Assembly: GCA_036478295.1 (NCBI GenBank)
Contig: JAZGDW010000139.1
Coordinates: forward strand, 1-62,132
From: Candidatus Krumholzibacteriia bacterium
Lineage (GTDB): Bacteria > Krumholzibacteriota > Krumholzibacteriia > WVZY01
Reading direction: 5' to 3'
Length of the DNA stretch: 62,132 nt
Made by a program: the position numbers and the translations under genes
Shown: piece after piece, positions 10,431-40,251 of the stretch
Numbering within the stretch: the stretch's first letter is position 1
Layout: each line of letters starts with the position of its first letter
The notes under the pieces: generated by a model
What the model was told of the DNA's origin: nothing
Database searches by the model: none
Seen by the model: the letters and a program-made list of their open reading frames with translations, nothing else

Positions 10431-10540
10431 ACGTGCCCGAGCCGTTTGTGGCTTCGGAGAAAACAAGCACTTGTATGTTTCCTGACATCGATCGCGTGTG
10501 CGACTCGCATCATGCTCGAGACCCTAGGGGGTAGATATCC

Positions 10541-11641
10541 ATGAGAAGGCTGCTGATCATCGCTGTGTTGCTTCTTCCAGTCGCCCTGCAAGCACAGGTT
10601 ATTCCGACCACTGAATGGGTGAGCTTCTGGAGTGATCATTCCGTACTCGATTTCAGCTCCGTGCCCGTCGGTTCGGTGGTGCGGGCATACGATCCACAGG
10701 GCGTGCTGTGCGGCGCATTCACGGCGTCCGCTTCCGGGGCCTACGGACTGATGCCCGTCTACCGGGACGATGTGACGACTGTTGGCATCGACGAAGGCGC
10801 GGAGCCCGGTGATATCATCTCGTTCACCGTTGATGACATACCAGCGATCCCCTTCGGCCCGGACGCCGCAGTCTGGACGGCGAACGGGGACATAAGACGG
10901 GTAAACCTGGCCGCGGGAGTGGCCGATCTCGATATCAAACCGGGATCATGCCCCAACATGTTGAACGCGCTGTTGCCCAACGGTCTCCCCACAGACGCGA
11001 GGTCCATGAGAGGCAGCATTTTACCGGTAGCCATTCTGGGTACGGCGAACCTCGACGTACACGACATCGACGTCGCCTCATTGCGTCTCGAAGGCGTGGA
11101 GCCGGTCCGTCACAGCTATGAGGATGTCACCCAACCGGTCGCTGGCGGTGGGGAGTGTGGCTGCGGGACCGGCGGGTCCGACGGCTTCATCGACCTTACG
11201 CTGAAGTTTCGCAGTACGGAGATCATCGCGGCGCTCGGTGCCTTTTCCGATGGCCAGCAGAGGGTACTGACCGTAAGCGGTGCTCTCGCCGACGGCACAC
11301 CGCTTCGGGCGAGTGACTGTGTGGGAGTGCTGGCGAAGAGTCCCAGGGAACCCGAATTGCCGTCGTTGTCAAGCTCCGGTGGTGTGGTGTTGCAACCGGC
11401 TGCCCCCAACCCTTTCAACCCGGTGACGCGCATTGGTTACATACTATCGAACGAAGCCTATGTCAGGCTCGCCGTGTACGATGTTACCGGGAGAGTGGTG
11501 GATCACCTCGTAGCGCACGTGCAGCCCGCTGGTGAGCACGTAGCCGTGTGGGACGCCGGCACATATCCAAGTGGAATCTACTTCTATCGTCTGGAAGTGG
11601 GGCGTTTCAGCGAGACTCGCAAGCTCATCTTGCTCAAGTAG
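10541..11641 (+). CDS. Secreted T9SS cargo protein of unknown function
   Basis: Signal peptide MRRLLIIAVLLLPVALQA. The N-terminal domain is paralogous to aa 1836-1925 of the upstream protease. A central Cys-containing IKPGSCPN domain is present. C-terminal PNPFNPVTRIGY...IYFYRLEVG...RKLILLK. Confidence 0.8.
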   Translation: MRRLLIIAVLLLPVALQAQVIPTTEWVSFWSDHSVLDFSSVPVGSVVRAYDPQGVLCGAFTASASGAYGLMPVYRDDVTTVGIDEGAEPGDIISFTVDDIPAIPFGPDAAVWTANGDIRRVNLAAGVADLDIKPGSCPNMLNALLPNGLPTDARSMRGSILPVAILGTANLDVHDIDVASLRLEGVEPVRHSYEDVTQPVAGGGECGCGTGGSDGFIDLTLKFRSTEIIAALGAFSDGQQRVLTVSGALADGTPLRASDCVGVLAKSPREPELPSLSSSGGVVLQPAAPNPFNPVTRIGYILSNEAYVRLAVYDVTGRVVDHLVAHVQPAGEHVAVWDAGTYPSGIYFYRLEVGRFSETRKLILLK

Positions 11642-11658
11642 CCGCGATCGCACCCGAA

Positions 11659-11699
11659 GAAGCTGATCGAGGTTGGACCTGGGAGCACGGCCCCAGTGC
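11659..11699 (+). repeat. Conserved 41-nt intergenic motif, copy B (GAAGCTGATCGAGGTTGGACCTGGGAGCACGGCCCCAGTGC)
   Basis: See copy A at 3913..3953. Confidence 0.6.
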
Positions 11700-11879
11700 A
11701 CCCCTGCATTGTGTACTCTCCGTTTCTCGTGTATAATTGTGACTATGGCGACCTGGCCGGCCACATAGTGATCGGCGGTTGGGCCGGCCTGGCAATCCGC
11801 GATTGGAGCTGACCTCGCCCACTCCCCGATCGCTACATCCTTCTCGAACAAGATCGATTGCTAACTGTGGAGAGGCATC

Positions 11880-13313
11880 ATGAGAATCGCTCTCGGTGTA
11901 TTTCTCATCCTTGCCGCGGCGTGCGGCGTCCCAGCGCTCGCGACGGTGGAGATCAGGAACGCCTTCCCGAATATCACGTTCACCCAGCCCGTCGATATTC
12001 AGCACGCCGGTGATGGGACCAACCGGCTCTTCATTGCCGAGTTGAGCGGGCTCATCTGGGTGGTCGAAAACGACTCGACCATCACGCAGCGCAAGCTTTT
12101 TCTGGATATCCAGGGCCCCGTCGGTGGCGGCGAGGGTCTCCTGGGGCTCGCCTTTCATCCCGACTACAGTAGCAACGGTTTCTTTTTCGTCAACTACACG
12201 GCCAGCGCTCCCAACCGTTCCGTCATCGCCCGCTTCGAGGTCAGCGCCACCAATCCGGATTCGGCGGCCGCGGACAGCCTGCGCGTCATCCTGGAGATCC
12301 CGCAGCCCTTCGGCAACCATAACGGCGGTGCCATCGCGTTCGGGCCCGGTGACGGGTACCTCTATGTTCCCATGGGCGACGGCGGCTCGCAGGGCGACCC
12401 GGCGGGAAACGGACAGAACACGACGAACCTCTTCAGCTCGATCATTCGTATCGATGTCGACAGCACGGCGGGCGGTTTGAATTATGTCATTCCAGCCGAC
12501 AACCCGTTCGTCGGCAACATGGCGGGTGTGCGTGAAGAGATCTGGGCGTGGGGATTCCGCAATCCGTGGCGCTGCAGCTTCGATCCGGTCACCGGCCGTT
12601 TCTGGGTCGGCGACGTCGGCCAGGACGCGATCGAGGAGATCGACGTCGTCGAGAAAGGAAAGAACTACGGTTGGAACATTATGGAGGGTGAGAGTTGTTT
12701 CAACCCCCCGGCGGGCTGTGACACGACCGGTCTCACGTTACCGGCATGGCAGTATCTCCACTCCCTCGGCAACTCGGTCACCGGCGGGTACGTTTACCGG
12801 GGTACGATGATCCCTTCCCTCGTTGGTCAGTACGTCTACGCGGACTTCGGGTCCGGGCGCGTCTGGTCACTGGACTATGATGGAATAAGCCCTACGGTCA
12901 ACACGCAGCTGATGGATACTGTCCTGCGGATTACCTCGTTCGGCGTCGACCGTGACGGAGAACTCTACCTCTGTGCGTTCATCCAGGGCGTCATTTACCG
13001 GTTTTTTCCCTGCGCTCCCACCGCGATTCCAGATGGTACGCCCCACCTCGGCGCACCCTCACTCGGCCAGAACTATCCAAACCCGTTCAATCCCGTGACG
13101 CGCATCACCTATTCACTGCCGCAAGCGGGTCACGTCCGGTTGTCGGTGTACGACGTAGCGGGCAGGCTTATCGACGGGCTGGTGGATACCGTGCAGCCGG
13201 TCGGTGAGCACGCCGTCGTCTGGGATGCAGCGGGCCTCCCGAGCGGGATCTATTTCTACCGGTTGCAAGCGGGCGGCGTCACGGAGACACGAAAGATGGT
13301 TTTGTTGAAGTAA
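11880..13313 (+). CDS. PQQ-dependent sugar (glucose/sorbosone-type) dehydrogenase beta-propeller with T9SS sorting domain
   Basis: Motifs GLLGLAFHPDY, NHNGGAIAFGPGDGYLYV, WAWGFRNPWR, GKNYGWN, GGYVYRG. Signal peptide present. C-terminal NYPNPFNPVTRITY...IYFYRLQAG...RKMVLLK. Confidence 0.85.
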   Translation: MRIALGVFLILAAACGVPALATVEIRNAFPNITFTQPVDIQHAGDGTNRLFIAELSGLIWVVENDSTITQRKLFLDIQGPVGGGEGLLGLAFHPDYSSNGFFFVNYTASAPNRSVIARFEVSATNPDSAAADSLRVILEIPQPFGNHNGGAIAFGPGDGYLYVPMGDGGSQGDPAGNGQNTTNLFSSIIRIDVDSTAGGLNYVIPADNPFVGNMAGVREEIWAWGFRNPWRCSFDPVTGRFWVGDVGQDAIEEIDVVEKGKNYGWNIMEGESCFNPPAGCDTTGLTLPAWQYLHSLGNSVTGGYVYRGTMIPSLVGQYVYADFGSGRVWSLDYDGISPTVNTQLMDTVLRITSFGVDRDGELYLCAFIQGVIYRFFPCAPTAIPDGTPHLGAPSLGQNYPNPFNPVTRITYSLPQAGHVRLSVYDVAGRLIDGLVDTVQPVGEHAVVWDAAGLPSGIYFYRLQAGGVTETRKMVLLK

Positions 13314-13482
13314 CCGCCGCGAGTGAAGAGCCGGGGTGAATTTACCCGAAACAAACGCCGCCGAACCACGTATAATCCTTAATACTCGCCCCCTCTGATT
13401 TCCCGCTTACAGTAGTTGAGCCGCGTCCGGTCAGCCGGTCGCTTCAATCGTCTTGCATCATTATAACCATGTGAGGTTTCAT

Positions 13483-14493
13483 ATGTTACGAACAACGTGC
13501 CTGGTTGTTGTCGCTTTGGTGATGGCCGTGTCGGCGGTCGCTTTGGCCCCCGGGGGGGCCGCCGCGTCGGACTTTGCCATGGACCAGATCTACACCATCG
13601 ACGGTATCCACTCCTACGTGGGTTTCAAGATCAAGTATATGGGGTTCGCCAAGGTCCGCGGGCGCTTTCCGGGCTTTTCGGGAACGATCCGGTTCGACGA
13701 GAACGACGTAACCCGGACGTCCGCCACGATGGTGATAGAGGTGGCGAGCCTGGACACCGAGAACGACCGGCGCGACAAGGACCTCAAATCCGATCAATGG
13801 TTGGACGCCGAAGCGTTCCCGACCATGACCTTTCGAAGTAAACGCGCCGTAAAGACAGACGTCGGATTCGACCTGATCGGCGACCTCACGGTTCGCGACG
13901 TCACGCACGAAGTGCGCATCGTGATGGACGAGTTCTCCGGCCTCATGAAGGACATCCGCGACGACACGCAGGTGATTTTCGTCGGCCATACCGAAATCAG
14001 CCGCAAGGCGTTCGGTGTCAAAGGCGATCGCTGGAGCAAGATCAAGGCCGGGATTACCGGCGTCGGAGATAAGGTCGAGATCGAGCTCACTGTTCTCGCC
14101 AAACAGATCAACGAGGGCAATTTCAAGAACTGGGTGCGGAATGTCGAAAGACCGCAGGGCAAGATCTATCACACCATCGCCGAAGGTACGGTCAAAGACG
14201 GCCTGACGGAATTCGACGCGATGCTCGGCCAGGCGGACAGCAAGATCAGCCTCGGTGTTCTAAACACGGTGGGCTACATGCTGCTCAAGGAAGGCAGGGT
14301 CGACGACGCGATCGACGTGTTTCGCCATAACCTCCTTGCATTTCCCGATGAGGGAGGACTGTACGATTCACTCGGAGAGGCATATGCGGTCAAAGGCGAG
14401 TGGGGCGAAGCGATCAAGCAATACAAGATCGCTCTCGAAAAGGACCCGCAAAACGCAAACGCCATCGAGATCTTGCGTCACATGGAGAATTAA
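13483..14493 (+). CDS. YceI-like (polyisoprenoid-binding) domain fused to C-terminal TPR repeats, secreted
   Basis: Start chosen at MLRTTCLVVVALVMA (RBS GTGAGG). YceI motif HSYVGFKIKYMGFAKVRGRF. TPR-like tail ending KQYKIALEKDPQNANAIEILRHMEN. Confidence 0.75.
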   Translation: MLRTTCLVVVALVMAVSAVALAPGGAAASDFAMDQIYTIDGIHSYVGFKIKYMGFAKVRGRFPGFSGTIRFDENDVTRTSATMVIEVASLDTENDRRDKDLKSDQWLDAEAFPTMTFRSKRAVKTDVGFDLIGDLTVRDVTHEVRIVMDEFSGLMKDIRDDTQVIFVGHTEISRKAFGVKGDRWSKIKAGITGVGDKVEIELTVLAKQINEGNFKNWVRNVERPQGKIYHTIAEGTVKDGLTEFDAMLGQADSKISLGVLNTVGYMLLKEGRVDDAIDVFRHNLLAFPDEGGLYDSLGEAYAVKGEWGEAIKQYKIALEKDPQNANAIEILRHMEN

Positions 14494-14581
14494 CGCCTGT
14501 GGTGGACGGTGGCGCCGGGAGCGTGCCCCGGTACCGTCGGCCGCGATCAGGCTTGAGGCTGCGGGCCCGCGGCGCGGACGC

Positions 14582-16330
14582 TCATTTCAAAAGTACCATC
14601 TTGCGGGTCTCGCTAACGCCTGCTGCTTGCAGGCGGTAGAAGTAGACGCCGGTCGCCACCTGCCTGTCGCCGTCGTCGCGGCCGTCCCACACGACCGCGT
14701 ACCCGCCGTTCCGCGGGACCTGGTCCGCGTCCACCAACGTTCGCACAAGCGCACCGGCAACCGAGTACACACGAAGATCCACATGCGACGGCGAAGCAAT
14801 CGAGTACTGGATCGTCGTGCTCGGGTTGAACGGGTTGGGATGATTCTGGTGAAGCGCGGTCGGTTGCGGCGTGTCCCCGATCCCCGTTGGTATCTCGGAT
14901 ATGCGCTTGACGCGCACATTGTCAAAGAGCGGTGAATGGCTGTGACACGGGTCGAGGTGGAAGCGCCGGTCTTCACACCGGAACGCAATCTGGATATTTG
15001 TCGCCGCGGGGTCGATCCACGTTGAGATATCGACGATGTTTTGTACCCAGTCCTTCTCGGTGCCAACCATGTCGCTGGTCCTCCGCCACGGCGTCGGGCA
15101 TCCATCCACGAAGGAGCGCGCGCGCAGCGTGTAGCGCACACCCGTCGCTGACACGATGTCGCGGTAGACGTCGAACTCGACGAAAGTCGGCGCACTCGGA
15201 CTCATCGGCGTTCCGTTCTCGTCCAGCAGGAGGCTGATGACGGGCGACCAGATTTCGTTGATAAGAAACTTTTCCGTCTGGAAATTCAGGTCGTTCGTTG
15301 GTTGCTGCCTGGGAACGGCGAGTTGTGCCGCAAAACCGCCGCACCCGTAGTTGTCCGGTGAGTTTTCGAAAAACCCCCAGAAATTCGTATTATTGACGAT
15401 CACGCCTTCTTGCAAGACGCTCAGGCCGTTAAAGAGCGCGCTGTGGTCCCCGAACACACCCGGCACACCGGCGGCCCAGTCGCCGTCGGTGGTCTGGGTG
15501 GCGCCCACGGCTTCCGATTCGAAATCCTGCGTGTCGACAACACCGGAACCGTCGCCTACGACCAGGTCGTCCACGACCAGGGCGCCGTCCGAGTTGCCGA
15601 TGCCGATGAAGTTGTCCTCGTCGGACACGGCGCCATCCGAGCTGAAATAGAAACGGAACTGGATTGTGCCCGAATGGTTCGCCGCGGGGATGGCGAACGA
15701 TTCGGTGGCGCTTCCCGTTCCGTCGTAGCCGCCGGGGACCCCGCCGTTGACCGGCAAGTTGGTCCAGCCACCCCCACCGGAGCGGTATTGAAAAAAGGTG
15801 AAGTCGTAGCTTGCCTCACTGTCCCAACGAACCAGGTAGTCGACGGAGACATCGCCGGTCACGGGAAAATCGACGGATTTGAGTTCCTGCCTCCAACCGT
15901 TTCCGTAACCCGGCGCAGCCACCCAGTTACAAAGCGGTGGGCTGGCCGACGGGCGCACGCCGAGCCACATCGACTGGCTGCCCGCGAGCGGGGAATACGG
16001 CGGCAGCATATTAACAAAGTTGTCGACGTGGAAGTACAGCTCCTGGTCTGTCGCATCGCGCGAGACCCATCCCTGTGGATCCGGCCCGCCGCCCGGTGCA
16101 TCGAACGTAAACTCGACGATGGTGAACGTGTCGATAGCGACCGCCGAGAGTCCGGGACCGGACGCGGTGGACTCACCCGACGCGTGGACCGCGGCGGGCG
16201 CCAAGGCTCGGACGACGACAGGCAGCAGCGGTGCTTTCGTTAGCTCTTTTGAAATGGCGAGTGAACCTGCGGCGATACACACAAGAAGGACGAGAAGCGC
16301 AGACGCCTTCATCAGGGGACGATTTGGCAT
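14582..16330 (-). CDS. Secreted T9SS cargo protein of unknown function
   Basis: AGGAG RBS 6 nt before the ATG at 16330. Signal peptide MKASALLVLLVCIAAG. C-terminal HPNPFNPSTTIQY...VYFYRLQAAG...RKMVLLK. Confidence 0.8.
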   Translation of the reverse strand: MPNRPLMKASALLVLLVCIAAGSLAISKELTKAPLLPVVVRALAPAAVHASGESTASGPGLSAVAIDTFTIVEFTFDAPGGGPDPQGWVSRDATDQELYFHVDNFVNMLPPYSPLAGSQSMWLGVRPSASPPLCNWVAAPGYGNGWRQELKSVDFPVTGDVSVDYLVRWDSEASYDFTFFQYRSGGGGWTNLPVNGGVPGGYDGTGSATESFAIPAANHSGTIQFRFYFSSDGAVSDEDNFIGIGNSDGALVVDDLVVGDGSGVVDTQDFESEAVGATQTTDGDWAAGVPGVFGDHSALFNGLSVLQEGVIVNNTNFWGFFENSPDNYGCGGFAAQLAVPRQQPTNDLNFQTEKFLINEIWSPVISLLLDENGTPMSPSAPTFVEFDVYRDIVSATGVRYTLRARSFVDGCPTPWRRTSDMVGTEKDWVQNIVDISTWIDPAATNIQIAFRCEDRRFHLDPCHSHSPLFDNVRVKRISEIPTGIGDTPQPTALHQNHPNPFNPSTTIQYSIASPSHVDLRVYSVAGALVRTLVDADQVPRNGGYAVVWDGRDDGDRQVATGVYFYRLQAAGVSETRKMVLLK

Positions 16331-16709
16331 GGCCACTCCTAGCTGGTCGGCAGGGTTCAACTCGTGGTGGGGCACTGCGGGCGATGGCGGTGAATGGGGA
16401 TTGAGCCGCGCCGCTTCGCGGTGTCGGCTCCAATCGCCATGTCATGTGCTGCGCTTGCATCAGCGTAGTAATGTTATATTATACCACGGCTTCCGCAAGA
16501 CTTCAAGCCTTCAGCCGCATCGCGCGCTCTCGTGCTCCGCAGCGCTTGCTGGGCGTGCACCCCCCCTGACCCACGGCGCTCCATGGGCGCCACAACCGGC
16601 CCGGAATGCCGCCTGTCCTTGGCGTGATCTTTGCTCCTCTCCGGTCCTGAAACCAATTGCGGCCGGCGGCCTGCTCGCCCCGAAACGACCTACAAGCCCT
16701 GAGGTGATT

Positions 16710-17513: not shown

Positions 17514-20500
17514 TTACTTGCAGGGCAGAAAGCGGACCGCCGTCCGCATCTCTTCGAGCACGCGATCCAGGGCCGATACCGTTTCGTCGATATCTTTTTC
17601 CGTCGTCTCGTGAGAAAGAGAAAGCCGCACCGCACAGTGGGCCTCCTCTTCGGTCCGTCCCATAGCGATGAGCACGTGGGTGGGCTTGGGCGATCCCGAC
17701 TTGCACGCGGAGCCCGATGAAATCGAAACCCCCTGCTGGTCGAGCGCCACGACTAGTGACTCCCCGCGAATCCCCGGCAGCGTGAGATTCAGCGTGTTGG
17801 GCAGCCGCTTTTCCGGATGCCCGTTCAACCGCGCGCCGGGCACCAGTTTTTTGATCGACCGCTCGAGCCGGTCACGAAGCGCTTTCACTTCATTCCCGTT
17901 CTGTGCCCGTTTCGCTGCCAGCTCCGCCGCCTTGCCCAGGCCGACAATCGCCGGTACGTTTTCCGTGCCCGCACGGACGCCGCCCTCCTGCTCGCCGCCG
18001 TGAACGAACGGCTCTAGCTCGACTCCCTTCTTTGCGAACAAAGCGCCGACGCCTTTTGGGCCGTGAAACTTGTGACCGGAAATCGTCAACATATCCACAC
18101 CGAGATCCTCCACATCGACCTTGATCTTGCCGATCGCCTGCACGGCATCGGTGTGAAACAGGACGTCCCTCTCGTGGGCGACGGCACGCAATTCCTTGAT
18201 GGGCAGGATGCTCCCCACCTCGTTGTTGGCCATCATGATCGAAACGATGATGGTGTCATCGGTAATCGCCTGCCGCAAGACATCGGGGGACAGCCAGCCC
18301 GTCTCGTCCACGTCCAGGTAGGTCACCCGGTAACCGGTTTTTTCGAGGAACTCGCAGGTACTGAGCACGGCGGGATGTTCGATCCGCGTGGTGATGATAT
18401 GATTGCCCTTGTGACGCATCGCGAAGGAGGCACCCTTTAGCGCGAGGTTGTCCGCCTCCGAGCCGCCGCTGGTAAATATGATGCGGCGCGGCCGGCAGTT
18501 GAGAAGCCGGGCGGCACGCCGTCGCGCCGTCTCCACGGCCTCACGGGCGTCCCTACCCATGCCGTGAATGCTGGACGGGTTGCCGTGCACGGTTTCCAGA
18601 AACGGCATCATGGCGTCCCGCACCTGGTCGGACACACGTGTGGACGCGTTGTTATCGAGATAGATTTGAGTGGCGGTTTTTTTTCTGGCCCCGGTGACGG
18701 AGGCCGCACCTCTGCCGCCCGCCACGGCCGCCGCCGGTACCGCGCGCGCGCGCTTATCGAGCGTCACCGTGCGCCGCGCCTTGTCGGTGGCCCCCTCGAC
18801 CTTCTGCACCTCACAGAGAAGCGCCTTGTACACCGGAAAACCGGATATCTCGTCGTAATTGCCGATGTCGGTGAGCTCGTTGACGTTCCATTCGCGCCAC
18901 GCCTTCGGCCCCACGGGCGATCCCCCACCCATGTTGCACTCGACGGCTCCTCGCACGATACGGTCGGTGACGCGTGCGCGAAATCGCACCGACCCGCGCG
19001 GGGAGCTGACCTCGACCAGATCGCCGCTGTCGATGCTCCGGGCTGCGGCATCATCGATGTGCATCTCGACCACCGGTTCGGGGTTCGCCGACACCAGGCC
19101 CTTGACACCGTGATGCTGAGAACGAAAGTCCGTCTGGATACGCGCCCCGGAGTTGAAGACGAGCGGAAATTCCCCGGCGACGGAGGGGCTGTTTCGTGGG
19201 CCCTCTTTGGGCTCGATGTATTTCGGTAGTGGCTCGTAACCGTAGTCTTCGAGTGTCGTCGACCAGATCTCGAACTTGCCCGTGGGGGTCTCGAAACCAG
19301 GCTTGCCGTCTTTGCGCAGGCCTCCCTTCTGCCACTTCTTGAATTCCATCATCGATGTCTCGTTCTGGACCCAGCCGCCTTGCTTGCGGATGTCCTCCAG
19401 CGTGTAGCCGGAACCGTCCAGGGCAAATCGAATCATTTCTTCTTCCGTTTGCGGGTAAAGGTCGCCGTAGCCGAGCCGCCTGGCGAGCTCGGCCATTATG
19501 AGATAGTCGTTGCGCGCTTCGCCCACCGGCTCGATGATTTTCTCGCGTAGGCGAAACACGGGACCGTACACCATGTAGGAATCGATCTCGAACATGGTGG
19601 TGGCGGGCAGGACGATGTCGGCGTACGCCGCGTCCGCCGTCAACTGCCGGTCGACGCACAAGAGAAAGTCGAGCTTCGATAACGTTTCGCGCCACAGCGC
19701 CGTCTGTGGCCACGACGTCAGCAGAGACGCCCCATGGATAATGAGACCGCGGATGGGGTAGGGCTCGCCTGCGCGCACGGCATCGAGCAGTCCGCTGGCG
19801 TGGGATTCGCCGCGGTAATGGCTATAAATCGGAAACCGCTCGCGGGCGACGGCGCGGTCGAGGTCGGGGTTTTCCTGATTGCACGAGCGGTTTATGGGGA
19901 AATGGCTGTCCAGCATGGCGAGGCCGACGCCGCCGGGCACGTCCAGCTGGCCGGCCAGCGCGAAGAGCGTGTGCACCGCGCGGATGGCCTGCACGCCGCT
20001 GTTGGAATACTCGAGACCGGTGTACATCACCGGGCAGGCGCCGATCGCACTGCAGATGCGCCGCGCCATGTCGCGAATGAACTCCGCCGGCACGCCGGTG
20101 ATGCCCTCGACTACCTCCGGCGGGAAGTGCTGAACGTATGTCTTCAACTCGTCGAATCCGTGGCACCAGTTCTCGGTGAAGTCTTCGTCGTAGAGTTCCT
20201 CATCGATCATGACCTCGATCATGCCCAGCGCCAGCGCGCCGTCCGTGCCGGGTCGGATCGGGATCCAGCGCGCGTCCGTCCGTTCCGCGGTCTCCGTGTA
20301 GCGCGGGTCGATGACGACAATCTCCGCGCCGCGCCTGGCGGCCGCCTCCAGCCGGTGCATGTCGAGGGGCGGCGAGTCGGTGGCGGGATTGGTGCCCCAC
20401 ACGACGAGCAGCTCCGCGTTCTCGATGTCGGTAAACATATCGACCAGCATGCGTCCCATCGTCACATGGGGAGAGATCATGGCGAACGACACGTAGCACA

Positions 20501-21032
20501 GCGCACCTACTCCCATGGTATTCGGAGAGCCGAAGGGAAAGAGTATGTTGGAGGCCGAGGACACCGCCACGCCTTTGGGCTGGTACATGTCGCAAAGCGA
20601 TAGCTCGAAGGCGCCGCGGCCCGTGTAGATCGCCGTCGCTTCGGGGCCGGATTCTTTTTTGATCGTGTTGAGATTGTCGGTGATGATGTCGTAGGCCTCA
20701 TCCCACGTGATGCGCTCGAACTCGTGGGTGCCCTTGGGGCCCGCGCGTTTCACGGGATGGGTGAGACGGTGTTTGGAATGGACGATCTCGGGCGCGTGCT
20801 GGCCCCGCCGGCAGATCATCCCCAGGGGATGGCTCGTGTCCGGCTTGATGTCAACGAGCTTGCCGTCGTCCAGCTGCAACTCGACCCAGCAGCCGGCCGG
20901 ACAGATACCGCAAATGCCTTTTTTCCATTTCACGGTCTGGCTACCTCGGTGAGAACACGGGCGATGCCTGACCTTATCACCAAACCCGGACGGTTCAAGG
21001 CTTTTTTGGGGTGGTGGCGGCGAATGCCGCAT
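17514..21032 (-). CDS. Fusion protein: molybdopterin (bis-MGD) oxidoreductase family domain (N-terminal) + NifS/IscS-type class-V cysteine desulfurase (C-terminal)
   Basis: One open frame. MopB part: CGICPAGC...MIC 4Fe-4S motif, ITWDEAYD, GDLVEVSSPRGSVRFRARVTDRI. NifS part (17514-18665): IYLDNNAST, SGHKFHGPKG (PLP Lys), SSGSACKSG (active Cys). The start is uncertain: ATG 21149, ATG 21032 or GTG 20933. Confidence 0.85.
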   Translation of the reverse strand: MRHSPPPPQKSLEPSGFGDKVRHRPCSHRGSQTVKWKKGICGICPAGCWVELQLDDGKLVDIKPDTSHPLGMICRRGQHAPEIVHSKHRLTHPVKRAGPKGTHEFERITWDEAYDIITDNLNTIKKESGPEATAIYTGRGAFELSLCDMYQPKGVAVSSASNILFPFGSPNTMGVGALCYVSFAMISPHVTMGRMLVDMFTDIENAELLVVWGTNPATDSPPLDMHRLEAAARRGAEIVVIDPRYTETAERTDARWIPIRPGTDGALALGMIEVMIDEELYDEDFTENWCHGFDELKTYVQHFPPEVVEGITGVPAEFIRDMARRICSAIGACPVMYTGLEYSNSGVQAIRAVHTLFALAGQLDVPGGVGLAMLDSHFPINRSCNQENPDLDRAVARERFPIYSHYRGESHASGLLDAVRAGEPYPIRGLIIHGASLLTSWPQTALWRETLSKLDFLLCVDRQLTADAAYADIVLPATTMFEIDSYMVYGPVFRLREKIIEPVGEARNDYLIMAELARRLGYGDLYPQTEEEMIRFALDGSGYTLEDIRKQGGWVQNETSMMEFKKWQKGGLRKDGKPGFETPTGKFEIWSTTLEDYGYEPLPKYIEPKEGPRNSPSVAGEFPLVFNSGARIQTDFRSQHHGVKGLVSANPEPVVEMHIDDAAARSIDSGDLVEVSSPRGSVRFRARVTDRIVRGAVECNMGGGSPVGPKAWREWNVNELTDIGNYDEISGFPVYKALLCEVQKVEGATDKARRTVTLDKRARAVPAAAVAGGRGAASVTGARKKTATQIYLDNNASTRVSDQVRDAMMPFLETVHGNPSSIHGMGRDAREAVETARRRAARLLNCRPRRIIFTSGGSEADNLALKGASFAMRHKGNHIITTRIEHPAVLSTCEFLEKTGYRVTYLDVDETGWLSPDVLRQAITDDTIIVSIMMANNEVGSILPIKELRAVAHERDVLFHTDAVQAIGKIKVDVEDLGVDMLTISGHKFHGPKGVGALFAKKGVELEPFVHGGEQEGGVRAGTENVPAIVGLGKAAELAAKRAQNGNEVKALRDRLERSIKKLVPGARLNGHPEKRLPNTLNLTLPGIRGESLVVALDQQGVSISSGSACKSGSPKPTHVLIAMGRTEEEAHCAVRLSLSHETTEKDIDETVSALDRVLEEMRTAVRFLPCK

Positions 21033-21079
21033 GAGACCGGGAACTTGCAGGGCCAGCGCGGGGCGCGGTGCCGCCGGAT

Positions 21080-21424
21080 CTACCGTTGCGAGTCGGCAAG
21101 ATACTCCTCGGGGTGCGCTCGGAGAAGATCCGCGCACGCATCGCTGCACATCGCGTAGCTCTGGTAGCCGATGTTCACGAACGATTCGTAGTTCACGTCC
21201 TCCCGGCAGACGGGGCAGCGCCCCATCTCCGGGTTATCGAACGTGACTTTGAGACTCCTGGCCTTCTTGACCGTGCGCAGGCGGGCGTTCAGTTGTTTCA
21301 CCGGCGCCGACGCGGTCTCCTGGATGGCCACCTGGTTGTGGCTCCAGAGAGAATAGACACCGATCGCGATCAAGAGCAACGCGATCAGGACAACGACGTT
21401 GGCACTGCCGGCTTGTTTTTCCAT
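21080..21424 (-). CDS. Single-pass membrane protein with C-terminal YHS/TRASH-type metal-binding domain
   Basis: Start at MEKQAGSANVVVLIALLLIAIGVY (GGGGAG RBS). C-terminal CPVCREDV...YAMCSDACADLLRAHPEEY matches the Cys pattern of YHS/TRASH domains. Confidence 0.7.
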   Translation of the reverse strand: MEKQAGSANVVVLIALLLIAIGVYSLWSHNQVAIQETASAPVKQLNARLRTVKKARSLKVTFDNPEMGRCPVCREDVNYESFVNIGYQSYAMCSDACADLLRAHPEEYLADSQR

Positions 21425-21578
21425 GACTCCCCGCATAGCACATTTTGCCCGCGTTGCACAATGCAAGCGGACGTATCTCAACGCGAAGTTTGGAAGTGTA
21501 ATCGAACGATGCGCCCCTCGGGGCCACGGCTTCGGGTTGCGGAAAGATAACTGTACTGTTGTCGCCTGTCCGGCACCC

Positions 21579-21731
21579 CTACCTGAGGTGGCCGTTGGCG
21601 TATTCCACGTGCTGTCCGGCCTCCTGGGTGGTGATATCTTCGCTATAGCTCCAGAAGAAATAGACCCCGACCGTGAACATCAGCAGGATGAATAACGCAA
21701 CAACTCTGGCACGTTTGGCTTGCTTGTTCAT
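21579..21731 (-). CDS. Small (50-aa) single-pass membrane protein, truncated paralogue of the YHS protein N-terminus (below the ORF-track length cut-off)
   Basis: AAAGGGAGGGCTC ATG RBS. Sequence MNKQAKRARVVALFILLMFTVGVYFFWSYSEDITTQEAGQHVEYANGHLR aligns with MEKQAGSANVVVLIALLLIAIGVYSLWSHNQVAIQETAS of the next gene. Confidence 0.6.
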   Translation of the reverse strand: MNKQAKRARVVALFILLMFTVGVYFFWSYSEDITTQEAGQHVEYANGHLR

Positions 21732-22080
21732 GAGCCCTCCCTTTAAAGATCGCGTGGCTGGGTGCGCCTTGCGCCCGGAAAGAACTTTTCATTCGAACTC
21801 CGGAAAGCACCTCGCGCCCGCGCTAGGGTGTGCAATAGCATAGATCGGGCCGATGCCCCACCGATGGCGATCCGGCGGTGGTGGTGGCATGGGTAACACG
21901 TTGTCCCCCAGAAAGTTGTGGCCCGGGAGCCGTCTCAGATGCGGGTGGGGTTCGAGGCGGGCATCGAGCCAAAATTGCCGGGGTGACGCGTTGGGGATTG
22001 CAACGCGTACCCGGGCGGGCGGGGACGGGATTGCCCGGCGGGGCAGGCGCGCCACGGCAGCCCGGAACCCGGAGTAACCC

Positions 22081-22137
22081 GCACCAGATACCCCCTGCAC
22101 CAGATACCGGCAAAAGGGCCTTCAGGTGTGGTATACT
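22081..22137 (+). promoter_or_regulatory. Direct repeats GCACCAGATACC x2 (22081-22092, 22097-22108) followed by an extended -10 promoter element TGgTATACT (22129-22137)
   Basis: Read from the sequence; ~40 nt upstream of the ATG at 22179. There is no good -35 hexamer, which is acceptable for extended -10 promoters. Confidence 0.4.
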
Positions 22138-22178
22138 GCCGCGTACCGATACCCTCCACAGCCCTCGAGAAAAGACCC

Positions 22179-23213
22179 ATGCGTCACATGATCTACAGAA
22201 TGTGCTGGAACTCCCGCGGGTGGAGAATGCCGACCCACACCTCGGGTGACGGCGGCTACCCGAGAGAAATGGGTTTCGGCATGGAGGAGTGGAACTTTCA
22301 GCTCGAAGACGCCGTCGACGGCTTCGTCTACGGGTACCTCTACTACAAACCTTCCGCCAAGGTCGTCCGGGAATCCGCGGGACGTTTCAGGATCGGCTTC
22401 TGGAGCATGCACCCCGACACCCGCGCAAAACTCCTGGTGGGCGTTTACAACGACGCCTCCCAGGCGACACCCGAAGACCTGCTGGCGGTGGACAGCACGT
22501 TCGAGAAAAACGGCGTCTACCCGCGGCGGGCGGAGGAACTGTCGTCTGTCGTCCCGTCTATTTCATTCGATGATGCGCTCTCGAAGGTCAGGAATTCCGT
22601 TCATGCGGGACTGCTCAATTTCAAATGCCGCGTCGAAGACTTTCACCTGCCGCCCGAGCCTATTCCTATCGGTGAGATCGTTCGCAACCAGACTATCGGC
22701 GAGCATTTCACCACGCCGACGTTCATTCCGGAGTTGAACCTGCCCGGGGTGCGGCGGCGGCCGGCGACGGCGGGTGCGGCGAGCGTCCTCGCCGAGGATG
22801 CCTACTACCGCGAGAACCCACAGACCTTGAAGCGCATCATTCGGCGCCACAACACGTTGTCCACCCGGTTTGGCCAGTGGTTGAAGCGCTCCGGTTTCTC
22901 GGGCGTCATGCAGGAACGCAACTACGTCGATGTAACCTTCGAGAAAGACGATGCCCACTACCGTGCCGAGCTCAAGACGTGTTACGGCGTGGGCAGCACC
23001 AAGGCGATCCGGGAGGCGCTGGGACAGCTGCTCGAGTACAACCTCTATCCCGGTAAGGGTAGCGCGGACCGCTGGGCGATCATCATCGACGAACGGCCCT
23101 CCAAACACGATATCGAATATCTGCTCGTGCTGCGGCGCCAGCTCAAGCTCCCGCTCTGCCTGGGTTGGAAAGAACGCGACGGTTTTGTCTTTCCAGACGG
23201 GCTGGGTTTGTGA
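22179..23213 (+). CDS. Two-domain protein: unassigned N-terminal beta-rich domain + C-terminal RecB/Cas4-like PD-(D/E)xK nuclease domain
   Basis: Nuclease motifs in order: NYVDVTF (Asp), AELK (Glu-x-Lys), GQLLEY (QxxxY). N-terminal IYRMCWNSRGWRMPT...GFGMEEWNF. No signal peptide. Confidence 0.6.
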   Translation: MRHMIYRMCWNSRGWRMPTHTSGDGGYPREMGFGMEEWNFQLEDAVDGFVYGYLYYKPSAKVVRESAGRFRIGFWSMHPDTRAKLLVGVYNDASQATPEDLLAVDSTFEKNGVYPRRAEELSSVVPSISFDDALSKVRNSVHAGLLNFKCRVEDFHLPPEPIPIGEIVRNQTIGEHFTTPTFIPELNLPGVRRRPATAGAASVLAEDAYYRENPQTLKRIIRRHNTLSTRFGQWLKRSGFSGVMQERNYVDVTFEKDDAHYRAELKTCYGVGSTKAIREALGQLLEYNLYPGKGSADRWAIIIDERPSKHDIEYLLVLRRQLKLPLCLGWKERDGFVFPDGLGL

Positions 23214-23326
23214 AGGCAACGCTTGTCCGGTGTCCCCCGGGGAGGGACCGCTCCCGAGGAAGGGCCGCTCCCGAGGACGGGAGTATTCGGACATGCGCAC
23301 GTGATTGGATGTTGTCTGTGAAGTCG

Positions 23327-24091
23327 CTACAGCCCCTCCAGCAGGTCTGTTTCACGCGGCTCGCCCGGCGTCCATGAGGGAAACACCCGCACGAAGGCTT
23401 CCTGCTCGAACACGCCCGCGTCGTAGAGTTCCTTGAAAGGCGGGCCGTCGCGCTGGGTGTCATGCGCCTGGATGGCCTGCCACTTGATGTCCGCCGTGTC
23501 GCGCGTGTCGATGACGGTCGTGATTTCATCGTCCGGTGAGTAGTAGACCTCGCGCGGCCAGTTCGCACGCTTGATCGCCTCCATCGCCGTGTACTGGTAG
23601 AGTTTCGACGTGCGGTGCGGCGGCAGCGCCCTCAAGTCCGGGTCATTGTACCAATTCTGCCACGCGCTCCCCAGGAACGCGCCGGTGAGCGCCGTCGCGA
23701 TCACGCGGTGGTCGGGATGAAATGAAATGCCCGAGCCATGAAACGTCATTACCATGTCGGGTTTTTCGCGGCGGATGACCTCCACGATTTTTTTCTCGAC
23801 TTCGAGCACGTTGATATTCTGGAGGTCACCGTCGTGCCAGCCGAAAAAACCGAGAAACTCGATACCGAGTACCTCAGCAGCCCTGGCCGTCTCCTCGCGG
23901 CGAAGTTTGCGCAGCTCCGTGTTGTCCTTGGGCCGTTCCTTGTAGAGACGACCGGCGCCGCCGTCGGTGGCCAGCGTGAACGCGACCCTATGACCGGCCG
24001 CGGCGTACTTGGCAAAAGTCCCGCCCGGACCCATGGATTCGTCGTCGGGGTGGGCGAAGACGCCGAGAATGGTTTTTTTCTTACCTGTCAT
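23327..24091 (-). CDS. PIG-L/LmbE family N-acetylglucosaminyl deacetylase
   Basis: GVFAHPDDESMGPGG motif plus downstream His/Asp motifs; 254 aa. Confidence 0.85.
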   Translation of the reverse strand: MTGKKKTILGVFAHPDDESMGPGGTFAKYAAAGHRVAFTLATDGGAGRLYKERPKDNTELRKLRREETARAAEVLGIEFLGFFGWHDGDLQNINVLEVEKKIVEVIRREKPDMVMTFHGSGISFHPDHRVIATALTGAFLGSAWQNWYNDPDLRALPPHRTSKLYQYTAMEAIKRANWPREVYYSPDDEITTVIDTRDTADIKWQAIQAHDTQRDGPPFKELYDAGVFEQEAFVRVFPSWTPGEPRETDLLEGL

Positions 24092-24356
24092 GTTTTCTCA
24101 TTATACGTCATAATGTTACGTCTGTGGATGGCGGTCCGGTACGCACGCCTGGTACGCGAAGTGCCCTTTGTCAGGCGTCCCGCCCACCACCGGCCGGTAC
24201 CTGCCGCACCCCTTCTCTTGACAGCGTTCGCGGGGGAGAAATCGCGCATATGGTAACAAAACCGGAGCGGTTGCCGTACTACTAAAACGTTCCAGGTGCG
24301 CTCATCGGGCGCCGCCTGGAATACAGACAAGCCTACTCAACACTCAGGAGGTCCAT

Positions 24357-26273
24357 ATGTTTTCTATTCCCAGGAAAGCACTCCCATTCGTGATGCTCGC
24401 AACTGCTGCGTGCGTTGCAGCGGCACTGACCCTCGCCCCCACAGCGCGCGCCGGGGAAAAGATCAAGATTACCAAGGTCGACGATCTGCCGCGTCACACG
24501 TATGCGATCAGCGTCAAGGCGTCCGAGCTACTGACCGACGAGCAGGCGTTCGCCGACCTCGCCGCGCGGGTGAAAAAAGATATCGAGGCCGACCTCGAGA
24601 AGTACGAGATCGTGGACAAAAAGACTCTGCAGGGGTACTACCAGGTTCTCCAGGGGATCACATTCTTCGAAGGCGATTACGACACTTCACGGAAATATCT
24701 CGAGAAGACCCGCGCGCTCGAGGACAAAGAGGCGAAGAAATACGTTATCGGCATGATCTTCTACTCTTACCTGGTCGCCCGCAGCGTGGACACAGACGTG
24801 TCATCCGACCGATTCAGGCAAGGGTTCCGGACGGACCTGTCCGCACGCGTGGCGTCGCTGCCGTGGGAAACGGTCCGCGAGATCATCGAGCAGGTGAACG
24901 GCCAAATGCAGATTCTGAGCGAGAACCTCCTGGTCGGACTCATCGAAGGTCAGTTGGACCCCGCAGTCGAGAAAAGCGGGTACCTCAGTGGTGACCAGGC
25001 CAAGCAGATAATCAACTTTCACGGTGCGCTCGCCCTGGTTCTGCCGTTGAAAGAAGATATTAGCGGCGTGCTCGGCGAAGCGATCGCGTCCCACAAAGTC
25101 GAGAAGAAGGATATCTGGGTCGCGCGTAACACCAGCTTCACCGGCAAGGAGGGGTACTCTCCCGTCATGGTCGGCATCTGGGACGCCGGCGTCGATGTGG
25201 AGGTATTCAAGGGCCGGTGTTTTACAAACACCAAGGAAAAATTGGACGGACGCGACACCGACGGCAACGGTTTCGTGGATGACGTGCACGGTATCGCGTA
25301 CGACATGGAACACAACAAGACAACCGATCTGTTACTCCCGTTGGGTGAGAGTGCGTCAATGCGCGCCGAGCTGGAAGGGCGTCTCAAAGGATTCACGGAC
25401 CTCAGCGCTGCAATCGACAGCCCCGAGGCAACCGTAATCAAGAAAACCATGGCGAGCCTCGAGAAGAGCGAGATGAAAGGTTATCTCGAAAACCTGACGC
25501 TCTACAGCCATTACGCGCACGGCACGCACGTGGCGGGCATTGCCCTCGAAGGCAATCCCTACGCGCACATCGTGCCCGCCCGCTTGTCGTTCGATCATCA
25601 CATGGTCCCCATGCCCTACACGATGGAGCTCATCACGCGCTTCGGCAAGGAGTTCAAAGAGGTCGTCGGCTATTTCAAGAACACTGAGGTACGTGTGGTC
25701 AACATGAGCTGGGGGTTGTCCCTCAAAGAGCTCGAACACAGCCTCGAAGCCAACGGCATCGGCGAGAGCGCCGAGGCGCGGGGCAAGATGGCAAGAGAGA
25801 TGTTCGAGATCGCGCGCAGAGACCTACACGATGCGTTCACGAGCGCGCCGGAGATTCTCTTCGTGGGTGCCGCGGGCAATTCGGACAATGACGTCGAGTT
25901 CGACCAGTTCATTCCGTCCGGGTTCAAGATGCCCAACCTCTTGATTACGGGTGCGGTCGACCAGGCCGGCGAACCCACGGTCTTTACGAGTTCCGGCAAG
26001 ACGGTGGCGGTGTACTCGAACGGTTTCGAGGTCGACAGCTACGTACCGGGTGGCAACCGCATGAAGCTCTCCGGCACGTCGATGGCGTCTCCCAACGTTG
26101 TCAACCTGGCAGCGAAGCTGCTGGCCATGGACCCGTCCCTGACACCGGCCCAGGTGGTCATGCTCATCAAGGAAGGGTCGGACGATTTCGGCAAGAAAGA
26201 GCCGATGCTGGTTATTTCGCCGAAGCGCTCCGTCGAGCTCCTCCAGGAGCGGCTGGGCAAGAAATCGGGATAA
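24357..26273 (+). CDS. Secreted S8 family serine peptidase with ~250-aa helical N-terminal region
   Basis: AGGAGG RBS and signal peptide. Triad motifs GIWDAGVD, HGTHVAGIA, SGTSMASPNVV. Confidence 0.85.
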   Translation: MFSIPRKALPFVMLATAACVAAALTLAPTARAGEKIKITKVDDLPRHTYAISVKASELLTDEQAFADLAARVKKDIEADLEKYEIVDKKTLQGYYQVLQGITFFEGDYDTSRKYLEKTRALEDKEAKKYVIGMIFYSYLVARSVDTDVSSDRFRQGFRTDLSARVASLPWETVREIIEQVNGQMQILSENLLVGLIEGQLDPAVEKSGYLSGDQAKQIINFHGALALVLPLKEDISGVLGEAIASHKVEKKDIWVARNTSFTGKEGYSPVMVGIWDAGVDVEVFKGRCFTNTKEKLDGRDTDGNGFVDDVHGIAYDMEHNKTTDLLLPLGESASMRAELEGRLKGFTDLSAAIDSPEATVIKKTMASLEKSEMKGYLENLTLYSHYAHGTHVAGIALEGNPYAHIVPARLSFDHHMVPMPYTMELITRFGKEFKEVVGYFKNTEVRVVNMSWGLSLKELEHSLEANGIGESAEARGKMAREMFEIARRDLHDAFTSAPEILFVGAAGNSDNDVEFDQFIPSGFKMPNLLITGAVDQAGEPTVFTSSGKTVAVYSNGFEVDSYVPGGNRMKLSGTSMASPNVVNLAAKLLAMDPSLTPAQVVMLIKEGSDDFGKKEPMLVISPKRSVELLQERLGKKSG

Positions 26274-26372
26274 GGAGAAAATGTCACGGCGCGCGGCCCT
26301 GCGAGCTCTTCGCACGCCGCGCGCCGGGGGGCCGGCTGACGAAATAGAACCGGCGGCGTGCGTGCCGCCGTG

Positions 26373-27056
26373 TCAGGCGGATGGTGCGGAGGTGGCCTCG
26401 GGCACGAGCTCACTCAACGTTTCGAAGCAGTACCCCTCGGACAACAGCTCGTCGGTGATGCGGTCGACAGCCGCGATGGTCTGACTGCGGTCCGAGTGGA
26501 TCCAGCGGCCGCCGTCATGCAGGATGATAATCGCCCCCGGTTCGATGCGGCGCCGGATGCGTTCTATGATGACGCGAACGCCGGGTTTGCGGGAATCCAA
26601 CGGATGGACGCTGCCGACAACCGGGTGGTAACCCATGCACCTGGCGATGGCCAACACCTTGTTGTTGAACCAGCCCATGGGTGGACGTAGAAACCTCGGG
26701 CGCCCACCGGTTACTTCCATGATGAGTTCTTCGGCGACGGCGATCTCCCTGCGAATCAGCCCGGACGGCAGCAGCGACAACGGTATGTGCCGGTCGCTGT
26801 GATTGCCGATCTCGTGCCCCGCACGGAAGGTGCGCTCGAGCACGTCACGGAACTGCCGCACCCGCCGCCCAACGACAAAAAACGTGGCACGGATTCCCTT
26901 GCGCTCGAGCATATCGAGCAGGTCCAGCGTGTGTTTCGGGTGGGGACCGTCGTCGAACGTCAACGCGAGCCGCTTGTCGCTGGTGGGCACCCGGCACAGA
27001 ATGCGTTTGCTCATGTACGCGCGGAACGCGGGGATGTCGAGCAGACTGGGGCTCAT
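26373..27056 (-). CDS. Polysaccharide deacetylase (NodB homology domain), no signal peptide
   Basis: LTFDDGPHPKHT, HEIGNHSDRH and IILHD motifs. 4-nt overlap with the upstream acyltransferase. Confidence 0.85.
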   Translation of the reverse strand: MSPSLLDIPAFRAYMSKRILCRVPTSDKRLALTFDDGPHPKHTLDLLDMLERKGIRATFFVVGRRVRQFRDVLERTFRAGHEIGNHSDRHIPLSLLPSGLIRREIAVAEELIMEVTGGRPRFLRPPMGWFNNKVLAIARCMGYHPVVGSVHPLDSRKPGVRVIIERIRRRIEPGAIIILHDGGRWIHSDRSQTIAAVDRITDELLSEGYCFETLSELVPEATSAPSA

Positions 27057-28516: not shown

Positions 28517-28659
28517 ATTCCCCTGTTCTCTGTGACCGGCAGGTTGGTGTACCGATTATGCCACCTGGCCCTCGGGCGAGTCAAATTGCGGTACGAGTCA
28601 AATTGTGATATATTATGCGGGTCGGACCCCCGCCTTTTTTCGCCCAGGGAGGCCCCCTC

Positions 28660-30159: not shown

Positions 30160-30305
30160 CGAACGTGGCGCAACGAAGCGGCAGCCCGTTGGCTGCCCCT
30201 TTTTCTTGTTGCGGCGGCGGGTCGTGACGCGATACGGGGCCGCCCCGTCCAGGTTCCGGAGAACCCGTAGGAATGCCGCGCCTGTGGCGCGAAGCGGCCA
30301 CCCCG

Positions 30306-30722
30306 TTACTTCGCCTTCAACGTCCTTGCGGCGCGCGCATAGTCCTTCGGTTTGACCCACAGGATCATGCCGTATCGTCCCTTGCCCGCGCACACCGCGT
30401 CCGCCGCGGTGATGTTGATCCTCCTGTCGGCAAGCTTCTGGATGTGACGGTGAGCGGCTCCCAGGGTGTCTTTTCCCTGAATAAGGAATCCCTTCTTGGT
30501 CTTGCCGATACGCCAGCCGTTCTTCTTGGCCACGCGCCGGATGATGGTCAGGTTATCCGCAATAAAATCGAGTTGTGACTTGCCACCCTTGGCGGGAAAT
30601 CCGCTAAACGCCATCAGGTCGACCCCGGCGTCTTTCAACTCGGACAGTACCCTCGCTCCCTGGCCGGGACGGCTCGTGACCATCGTATTGCAATAACTCA
30701 CCCTGCGTACTCGATCTGCCAT
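30306..30722 (-). CDS. Small cytoplasmic protein, possibly tandem ACT-like ligand-binding domains
   Basis: 138 aa. Two similar halves (RPGQGARVLSELKDAGVDL... / GAAHRHIQKLADRRINI...). The assignment is weak. Confidence 0.4.
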   Translation of the reverse strand: MADRVRRVSYCNTMVTSRPGQGARVLSELKDAGVDLMAFSGFPAKGGKSQLDFIADNLTIIRRVAKKNGWRIGKTKKGFLIQGKDTLGAAHRHIQKLADRRINITAADAVCAGKGRYGMILWVKPKDYARAARTLKAK

Positions 30723-38292: not shown

Positions 38293-38928
<636 letters not shown>

Positions 38929-39734: not shown

Positions 39735-40251
39735 GATGGTCTCCTCACCGCGCGCTGGCGCGTAGCAAACCCAACTAACACTGGAAGGACCGTCGAAGGA
39801 GGTGTCGAGGCTGTGGCTGGAATGAACTTTTCCCGGCGGGTGGGGTTCTCTTGTTCAAAGATGGTGTCCATATGAGCGTTCGTCAATATTCCCCCAGGCT
39901 TCATCGCCAAAAAAACCGAAATACTCACACCTTTAGACTGAGGTTCGGGCCGATTGGTTGCATTTTTTCTCGCCGCTTTCAGGAAATCCTCGCGCCGGTG
40001 GTACCGAGGGCTCCGCGGGACCTCCGGAGAACCCCTCTTGCCGAGTGGTTTGACGCTGCCGGACGTTCCTGTTACCATTCCCGATCAGAAAAGGCACCGA
40101 AAAAGGCGTTCTTCTTTTGCCCGCTCTTTCTGTACACACCAGGCACCCGTATATTCACCGCCGGGCGGCGGGACGGGCACAAAACGTCGAGCCTGCAGCG
40201 CGTGAGAGGTCTCGCCGTCAAAGACGCAAAAACCACAGTGAGGAACCTCAC

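Follow-up and report, generated by a model that had tools for sequence, protein, structure and literature searches.

A metallopterin module and a cysteine desulfurase on one reading frame

The stretch of DNA analyzed here (the window; 62,132 nucleotides of contig JAZGDW010000139.1, assembly GCA_036478295.1, Candidatus Krumholzibacteriia bacterium) carries on its minus strand a single open reading frame (ORF) that encodes, in this order according to Pfam, an N-terminal module of the MopB family, which binds molybdenum or tungsten through bis-molybdopterin guanine dinucleotide (bis-MGD), and a C-terminal class-V cysteine desulfurase dependent on pyridoxal phosphate (PLP). Proteins of this architecture, the metallopterin-dependent ergothioneine synthases (MES), were discovered, named and characterised by Beliaeva and Seebeck (JACS Au 2022; PMC9516567). 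The ORF runs without interruption from 17514 to 21149 and comprises 1211 codons from the first GTG. A first-pass annotation, made from the sequence alone, had described one uninterrupted frame joining two enzymes, and this frame was recovered, together with every motif quoted for it (CGICPAGC...MIC, ITWDEAYD, GVGALCYVS, GDLVEVSSPRGSVRFRARVTDRI, IYLDNNAST, SGHKFHGPKG and SSGSACKSG). Its domain assignments were likewise right, as the Pfam search gave Molybdop_Fe4S4, Molybdopterin, Molydop_binding and Aminotran_5, and the residues that it had proposed as cysteine ligand of the metal, PLP lysine and persulfide cysteine align with those of CaMES, the enzyme from Caldithrix abyssi. The features of the gene are as follows.

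17514..20933, minus strand: likely MES coding sequence, 1139 amino acids (aa), with a GTG start and the stop codon at 17514-17516, as judged from full-length homologs
20934..21149, minus strand: in-frame upstream extension with the alternative starts ATG 21032 and GTG 21149, probably 5' untranslated
20775-20930, minus strand: Molybdop_Fe4S4 domain (ORF residues 74-125; Pfam E 1.3e-8)
19479-20768, minus strand: Molybdopterin domain, bis-MGD binding (ORF residues 128-557; Pfam E 6.7e-45)
18822-19142, minus strand: Molydop_binding domain, the C-terminal beta-barrel of the metallopterin module (ORF residues 670-776; Pfam E 4.2e-21)
18666-18797, minus strand: interdomain linker of 44 aa, variable, basic and Ala/Arg/Gly-rich, delimited by the conservation profile
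17586-18665, minus strand: Aminotran_5 domain, class-V PLP cysteine desulfurase, NifS/IscS-like (ORF residues 829-1188; Pfam E 3.3e-83)
20910-12, 20901-03, 20889-91 and 20811-13, minus strand: codons of the 4Fe-4S cysteines Cys8, Cys11, Cys15 and Cys41, equivalent to CaMES Cys14, Cys17, Cys21 and Cys48
20496-20498, minus strand: predicted metal-ligand Cys146 in GVGALCYVS, equivalent to CaMES Cys153 and to acetylene hydratase Cys141 (2e7z alignment, ...YMCIG...)
18069..18071, minus strand: PLP lysine Lys955 in SGHKFHGPKG, equivalent to CaMES Lys952
17703..17705, minus strand: persulfide cysteine Cys1077, equivalent to CaMES Cys1074
17634..17636, minus strand: conserved Cys1100, equivalent to CaMES Cys1097
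17520..17522, minus strand: penultimate relay cysteine Cys1138 in the ...RFLPCK tail, equivalent to CaMES Cys1135

The first-pass annotation probably set the gene start about 100-216 nt too far upstream. Several observations favor GTG 20933: similarity to relatives begins at about 20945 in a tblastx comparison with a syntenic Krumholzibacteriia contig (L005), with no homology further upstream; a conserved minus-strand ORF lying upstream (21080-21481) terminates with a TAG at 21080 and thus overlaps the in-frame extension of the MES gene; only 5-30 residues precede the W-K-K-G-I-C-G-I-C motif in homologs; relatives measure 1130-1157 aa; and a GAGG lies 10 nt upstream of this GTG. No Shine-Dalgarno-like sequence was found before ATG 21032. 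GTG 20933 is therefore the likely start, giving a product of 1139 aa, with ATG 21032 as a possible alternative. A scan for promoters and terminators around the gene yielded nothing above chance.

The linker, located where the first-pass annotation had placed it, is the sole poorly conserved stretch of the protein, with a mean conservation of 0.2 versus 0.65-0.9 elsewhere.

The fusion is conserved across many phyla

Homologs were sought in a collection of 5.8 billion proteins, and the homolog figures reported here cover the 120 matches listed. These proteins are 73-84% identical to the query at 98-100% query coverage, are 1103-1202 aa long and possess the same Pfam domains. They derive from metagenome-assembled genomes (MAGs) with the labels Krumholzibacteriia, Calditrichaeota, Gemmatimonadales, Gammaproteobacteria, Latescibacterota, Deferribacteres and others. 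A scan of GTDB species genomes produced 354 stretches with a relative, 80 of which were kept for comparison; in each of these, the relative is one continuous gene, save for a few clipped at contig ends. The linkers of the relatives measure 30-53 aa (mode, 35) and are invariably in frame. Thus, the search for the same domain order that the first-pass annotation had suggested returned the same continuous fusion in more than 120 database proteins and more than 100 loci. As judged from these sequence comparisons, the desulfurase-MopB fusion is genuine and not an assembly artefact; an indel or missed stop codon is untenable because the same continuous ORF recurs in more than 100 independent assemblies from many phyla.

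The protein belongs to the MES family

MES combine an N-module related to acetylene hydratase with a functional C-terminal cysteine desulfurase and move the sulfur of cysteine to C2 of N-alpha-trimethylhistidine (hercynine, TMH), forming ergothioneine (PMC9516567). Four homologs, namely, CaMES, AbMES, EaMES and hvMES, the latter from a hydrothermal-vent metagenome, yielded ergothioneine from TMH in E. coli (PMC9516567). The isolated C-module converts cysteine to alanine, and the substitutions K952A, C1074S, C1135S and C153S each eliminate ergothioneine production by CaMES, whereas C1097S merely halves the activity (PMC9516567). Coexpression of the K952A and C153S variants did not rescue activity, so that the sulfur transfer is intramolecular (PMC9516567). 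The K952A variant retains the shuttling of 34S between ergothioneine and TMH, and the exchange is reversible (PMC9516567); given that this variant still exchanges sulfur, the desulfurase serves turnover and not maturation. In the cycle proposed by the authors, the imidazole attacks a Mo/W(VI)=S sulfido group, ergothioneine leaves, and a protein persulfide resulfurates the reduced metal (PMC9516567). No later structural study of MES was found in the literature library searched.

The window protein was compared with two of these enzymes. The CaMES reference was a clean 1136-aa sequence from a C. abyssi MAG (L227), the numbering of which agrees exactly with that of PMC9516567; the identity of the window protein to this sequence is 60.5% (1137 aligned positions, 1449 bits). 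The identity to hvMES is at least 64% (BLASTP) or at least 67% (global alignment), both lower bounds because the reference was text obtained from the supplement by optical character recognition. CaMES and hvMES, both active, are themselves 59% identical. Average-linkage clustering of 108 full-length proteins from the related loci places the window protein in the hvMES-type cluster. Table S1 of PMC9516567 defines MES homologs by the conserved residues Cys153, Lys952, Cys1074, Cys1097 and Cys1135, all of which, along with the four FeS cysteines, have counterparts in the window protein. The key positions are invariant in 77/77 relatives, except for Cys1100 (73/77) and Cys1138 (76/77), and 110/120 of the listed homologs end in the LPCK tail, which includes the penultimate cysteine. 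The domain order is the same as in CaMES and hvMES, the length is similar (1139 versus 1136 aa), and the C-terminal ...RF[LI]PC[KR] tail is common to all. The window protein differs from CaMES and hvMES in its somewhat longer linker (44 aa compared with about 33-35) and in the lack of a neighboring EgtD gene, and from the published MES in its host, apparently a Krumholzibacteriia-like bacterium of the Fibrobacteres-Chlorobi-Bacteroidetes (FCB) group, a phylum missing from the list in PMC9516567.

Together, these features make it highly probable that the window protein is a functional MES that makes ergothioneine from TMH; that it performs the same chemistry as its characterised relatives and that the host supplies TMH are both inferred by homology. 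The C-terminal PLP desulfurase would convert L-cysteine to alanine, keeping the sulfur as a persulfide on Cys1077, from which the penultimate Cys1138, in the C-terminal tail, would relay it intramolecularly to the bis-MGD center in its reduced Mo(IV)/W(IV) state. The metal, located in the acetylene-hydratase-like N-module, would be held by Cys146 with the 4Fe-4S cluster nearby, and the relay would regenerate the metal(VI)=S sulfido group. Imidazole C2 of TMH would then attack the sulfido, ergothioneine would depart, and the metal would return to its reduced state.

The gene is one more ortholog of a known family, for which the 2022 paper already gave the architecture, the function and a list of homologs. 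The first-pass annotation had taken the fusion for one not described before, adding that a common and functionally characterised architecture would speak against its reading; MES were published in 2022 (PMC9516567), and the architecture is indeed both. Its suggestion that the desulfurase sulfurates the Mo/W center agrees with the published MES mechanism, in which this happens in every catalytic cycle (PMC9516567). Neither of the two activities that it considered holds for the family. MES do not act as self-sulfurating oxidoreductases but pass the metal-bound sulfur to TMH, creating the C-S bond of ergothioneine (PMC9516567), and they are not enzymes that turn over a persulfide- or selenide-type substrate.

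EgtD and the identity of the sulfur acceptor

Several points weigh against the assignment of the window protein to ergothioneine synthesis. What PMC9516567 gives for the metal center is a proposed cycle and not an established mechanism. Others concern the supply of the acceptor. TMH is made by the histidine N-alpha-methyltransferase EgtD, and no gene for it lies in the 62-kb window: tblastn searches with the EgtD of M. smegmatis and of C. abyssi gave no match, and the best hit of an EgtD profile hidden Markov model run with filters off had an E value of 5.5. EgtD was also not found within 8-10 kb of MES in the closest relative (L005, 84% identical), nor, over the same distance, near MES in the loci from Gemmatimonadota, Latescibacterota, KSB1 and most Gammaproteobacteria. 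In favor of the assignment, across the related loci as a whole, EgtD is adjacent to MES in 55/107 full-length loci, among them those of relatives 74-76% identical to the window protein; it stands beside MES in 31 of the first 84 loci, mostly less than 200 bp away, and in 35 CaMES-proximal loci.

The window protein could thus be an MES-type sulfur transferase whose acceptor is not self-made TMH but either scavenged TMH or another nucleophilic heterocycle, an alternative considered improbable. Besides the missing EgtD, it draws on the distribution of this gene between the two clusters, which are about 60% identical to each other: among adequately flanked loci, EgtD is nearby in only 24/58 of the hvMES type versus 19-20 of 20-23 of the CaMES type. 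It also draws on the betaine-type ATP-binding cassette (ABC) transporters that adjoin EgtD and MES in some relatives and on the speculation of the authors that related molybdenum enzymes may sulfurize other heterocycles (PMC9516567). However, hvMES, a member of the same cluster as the window protein, makes ergothioneine from TMH (PMC9516567). Furthermore, EgtD-adjacent relatives (L007, 76% identical to the window protein; L010, 75%; L011, 75%) and EgtD-distant ones (L005, 84%; L061, 78%; L079, 77%) are interleaved, with homologs of both kinds mixing at 74-78% identity. An unlinked EgtD is in fact to be expected, since Table S1 lists about 80 genomes that encode histidine-specific methyltransferases, including those of Gemmatimonadetes and Gammaproteobacteria, and the methyltransferase is co-encoded with MES in only 55 of these (PMC9516567); moreover, 62 kb is a small fraction of a genome.

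Searches for an unlinked EgtD with an EgtD profile, the C. abyssi EgtD and a profile of FCB-group EgtD found no assembly shared with the EgtD-less loci, the returned sets consisting mostly of Proteobacteria, cyanobacteria or short metagenome contigs. A separate observation was made in the C. abyssi MAG HyVt-577, where the start of MES is 34 nt short of a contig end (L227, DRQG01000086.1) and EgtD lies about 600 nt inside the end of a second contig (L165, DRQG01000130.1); the two genes may be neighbors split only by an assembly gap.

Transporter genes were found next to the pathway genes in several relatives. For example, in Gemmatimonadota CP070758.1 (L290:7701-14418), an ABC ATPase, an OpuAC-permease fusion, EgtD and then MES form an operon-like array. 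Related OpuAC-permease fusions (54-65% identity) also adjoin EgtD/MES in loci of Calditrichaceae, Scalindua and Planctomycetes (L228, L230, L232, L233, L035 and L055). The architecture of the fusion presumably resembles that of the ergothioneine importer EgtUV, which suggests a coupling of TMH or ergothioneine transport to the MES pathway. No OpuAC-permease fusion gene is present in the window.

A broader version of the alternative acceptor is that, in the EgtD-distant lineages of the hvMES type (Krumholzibacteriia-like, Gemmatimonadota, Latescibacterota and KSB1), MES is uncoupled from de novo TMH synthesis. This is unlikely; if true, these lineages would use imported TMH or a different heterocyclic acceptor, and MES would represent a broader class of Mo/W-dependent enzymes that form C-S bonds.

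Comparison with other molybdenum and tungsten enzymes and desulfurases

The solved structure nearest to the N-module is that of the tungsten acetylene hydratase of Pelobacter/Syntrophotalea acetylenicus (2e7z, E 4.4e-74), followed by that of Thermus PsrA (2vpw, E 7e-62). Like acetylene hydratase, the module is cytoplasmic and single-subunit, binds bis-MGD and a 4Fe-4S cluster, and has an aligned cysteine as the metal ligand. Asp13, which is catalytic in acetylene hydratase, follows the second cluster cysteine there (CQSCD) but is replaced by proline in MES (CGICP); hence, the N-module resembles acetylene hydratase in fold only, and identity with this enzyme was rejected. The proline is found in all four characterised MES (supporting information alignment, Figure S2, PMC9516567). 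Acetylene hydratase also differs from MES in having no desulfurase domain and in hydrating acetylene without any sulfur transfer.

The C-module aligns end to end with NifS/IscS proteins (IscS2 of A. fulgidus, 4eb5; NifS of H. pylori, 5wt2; IscS of E. coli, 1p3w; E 1e-90 to 1e-109, the latter the best value among the PDB cysteine desulfurases) and keeps the PLP lysine and the persulfide loop cysteine. Unlike these desulfurases, it is covalently tied to its sulfur acceptor and has an extra C-terminal relay cysteine. Among the NCBIfam models, the broad IscS subfamily model NF002806 was passed (322 versus 304 bits), whereas the scores fell below the equivalog cut-offs of TIGR03402, NF010611 and TIGR02006 (514 versus 530.75, the NifS model; 390 versus 548; and 382 versus 643 bits). 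An AlphaFold2 model of the whole protein built from 34 homologs was too poor for use (mean pLDDT 50.2, pTM 0.39) because no admissible homolog is less than 73% identical.

Delivery of sulfur from a NifS-type desulfurase to a molybdenum cofactor is shared with ABA3/MOCOS and with the bacterial IscS-FdhD system, but these sulfurate the cofactor once, at maturation, before its insertion into another enzyme, whereas the sulfido of MES is consumed and renewed in each turnover (PMC9516567). ABA3/MOCOS consist of an N-terminal NifS-like domain and a C-terminal MOSC domain; the window protein has the opposite order, with a full MopB module as the partner. A Moco sulfurase of the ABA3 type was rejected, as Pfam detected no MOSC domain.

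A conventional redox Mo/W enzyme, similar to polysulfide/thiosulfate reductase or formate dehydrogenase, in which the desulfurase only matures the cofactor or in which a persulfide is the redox substrate, is very improbable. The similarity to PsrA and, below cut-off, to the Fdh-alpha and PhsA models is compatible with such an enzyme, and cofactor sulfuration by IscS/FdhD and ABA3 is established biology. Yet, for the family, this reading is contradicted by the desulfurase-dead K952A variant of CaMES, which keeps a working metallopterin site (PMC9516567). All NCBIfam redox MopB models tried (Fdh-alpha, PhsA, DmsA and others) scored far below their cut-offs, for example, 292 versus 666 for Fdh-alpha and 263 versus 694 for PhsA, and on these grounds respiratory and redox MopB identities (Fdh-alpha, PhsA/PsrA, DmsA and NasC) were rejected. 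The translation has no twin-arginine leader, and no gene for an FeS subunit, membrane anchor, chaperone or electron-transfer partner adjoins MES in the window; both absences also speak against a respiratory Psr, Phs or Fdh enzyme and bear out the first-pass description of a stand-alone cytoplasmic gene. Finally, there is virtually no chance that two separate genes were artificially joined through faulty sequencing or assembly of the low-complexity, poorly conserved linker, considering the in-frame linkers of 30-53 aa in all the independent assemblies and the functional requirement for the fusion in CaMES (PMC9516567).

Breadth of the family and variants without a desulfurase

With hvMES-type patterns alone, at least 354 GTDB species representatives were found to have an MES relative, compared with about 80 genomes listed in 2022. 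In public databases, MES bear names such as 'IscS subfamily cysteine desulfurase', 'cysteine desulfurase NifS' and 'aminotransferase class V-fold PLP-dependent enzyme'. MES are said to occur exclusively in anaerobes (PMC9516567); the hosts encountered here include groups that are not obviously strict anaerobes, namely, Gemmatimonadales, Vicinamibacterales, Thiobacillus, Ca. Thiodiazotropha and Bdellovibrionales.

Six loci, from Leptospirales, Methanophagales (two MAGs), Ca. Sulfobium (two MAGs) and Caldilineales, harbor MES variants that lack the desulfurase.

L259:9923-12217: desulfurase-less MES variant, EgtD directly after
L261:7099-9285: desulfurase-less MES variant, EgtD directly after
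L265:3123-5312: desulfurase-less MES variant, EgtD directly after
L263:7564-9762: desulfurase-less MES variant, EgtD directly after
L264:1535-3712: desulfurase-less MES variant, EgtD directly after
L275:6771-8978: desulfurase-less MES variant, EgtD not found

These ORFs encode 725-764 aa, share 53-65% identity with the metallopterin module of the window protein and end just past ...FPVYKALLC.V. No NifS-like segment was found anywhere in the six loci, so the variants must get their sulfur by another route. Stand-alone metallopterin modules are not mentioned in PMC9516567, and intramolecular sulfur delivery is obligatory in CaMES.

Genes surrounding MES and the host

The neighbors of MES encode secreted proteins with tails of the type IX secretion system (T9SS), a PIG-L deacetylase, S8 and S41 peptidases, LarC, Dus and others; no function related to sulfur, cofactors or ergothioneine was found among the genes surrounding MES in the window. 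The following features were noted individually.

21080-21481, minus strand: 133-aa ORF directly upstream of MES, with a predicted membrane helix and a CPVC...C...C motif, no Pfam match
22128-23213, plus strand: 361-aa ORF, no Pfam match
38293-38928, plus strand: 1-Cys peroxiredoxin
40117-40722, plus strand: protein with a Tae4 domain (amidase effector family of the type VI secretion system)
47503-48747, minus strand: LarC-type nickel insertion protein

The motif of the 133-aa ORF is reminiscent of the YHS/TRASH metal-binding domains, and among the first 84 related loci this ORF is conserved only in the Krumholzibacteriia locus L005 (63% identical). Similarly, the 361-aa ORF has a syntenic counterpart of 79% identity in L005 and is absent from the other 83 of these 84 loci. 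Clustered at 4308-16375 are secreted proteins that end in T9SS C-terminal sorting domains or FlgD-Ig tails, namely, an S8 peptidase of 2040 aa with Ig repeats, a glucose/sorbosone dehydrogenase, an unnamed protein (10541-11641) and a protein of 597 aa. The region of about 21100-30700 is collinear with the Krumholzibacteriia MAG contig JBHHVD010000049.1, and this synteny, together with the many T9SS sorting domains, indicates a host of the FCB group.

Implications

MES provide a route to ergothioneine that is independent of oxygen and, to our knowledge, are the only Mo/W bis-MGD enzymes that form a C-S bond. The window adds to them one ortholog from a poorly studied lineage of the FCB group. 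The MES family is much larger and taxonomically wider than first reported, and annotation of its members as IscS or NifS only conceals the capacity for ergothioneine synthesis in metagenome surveys.

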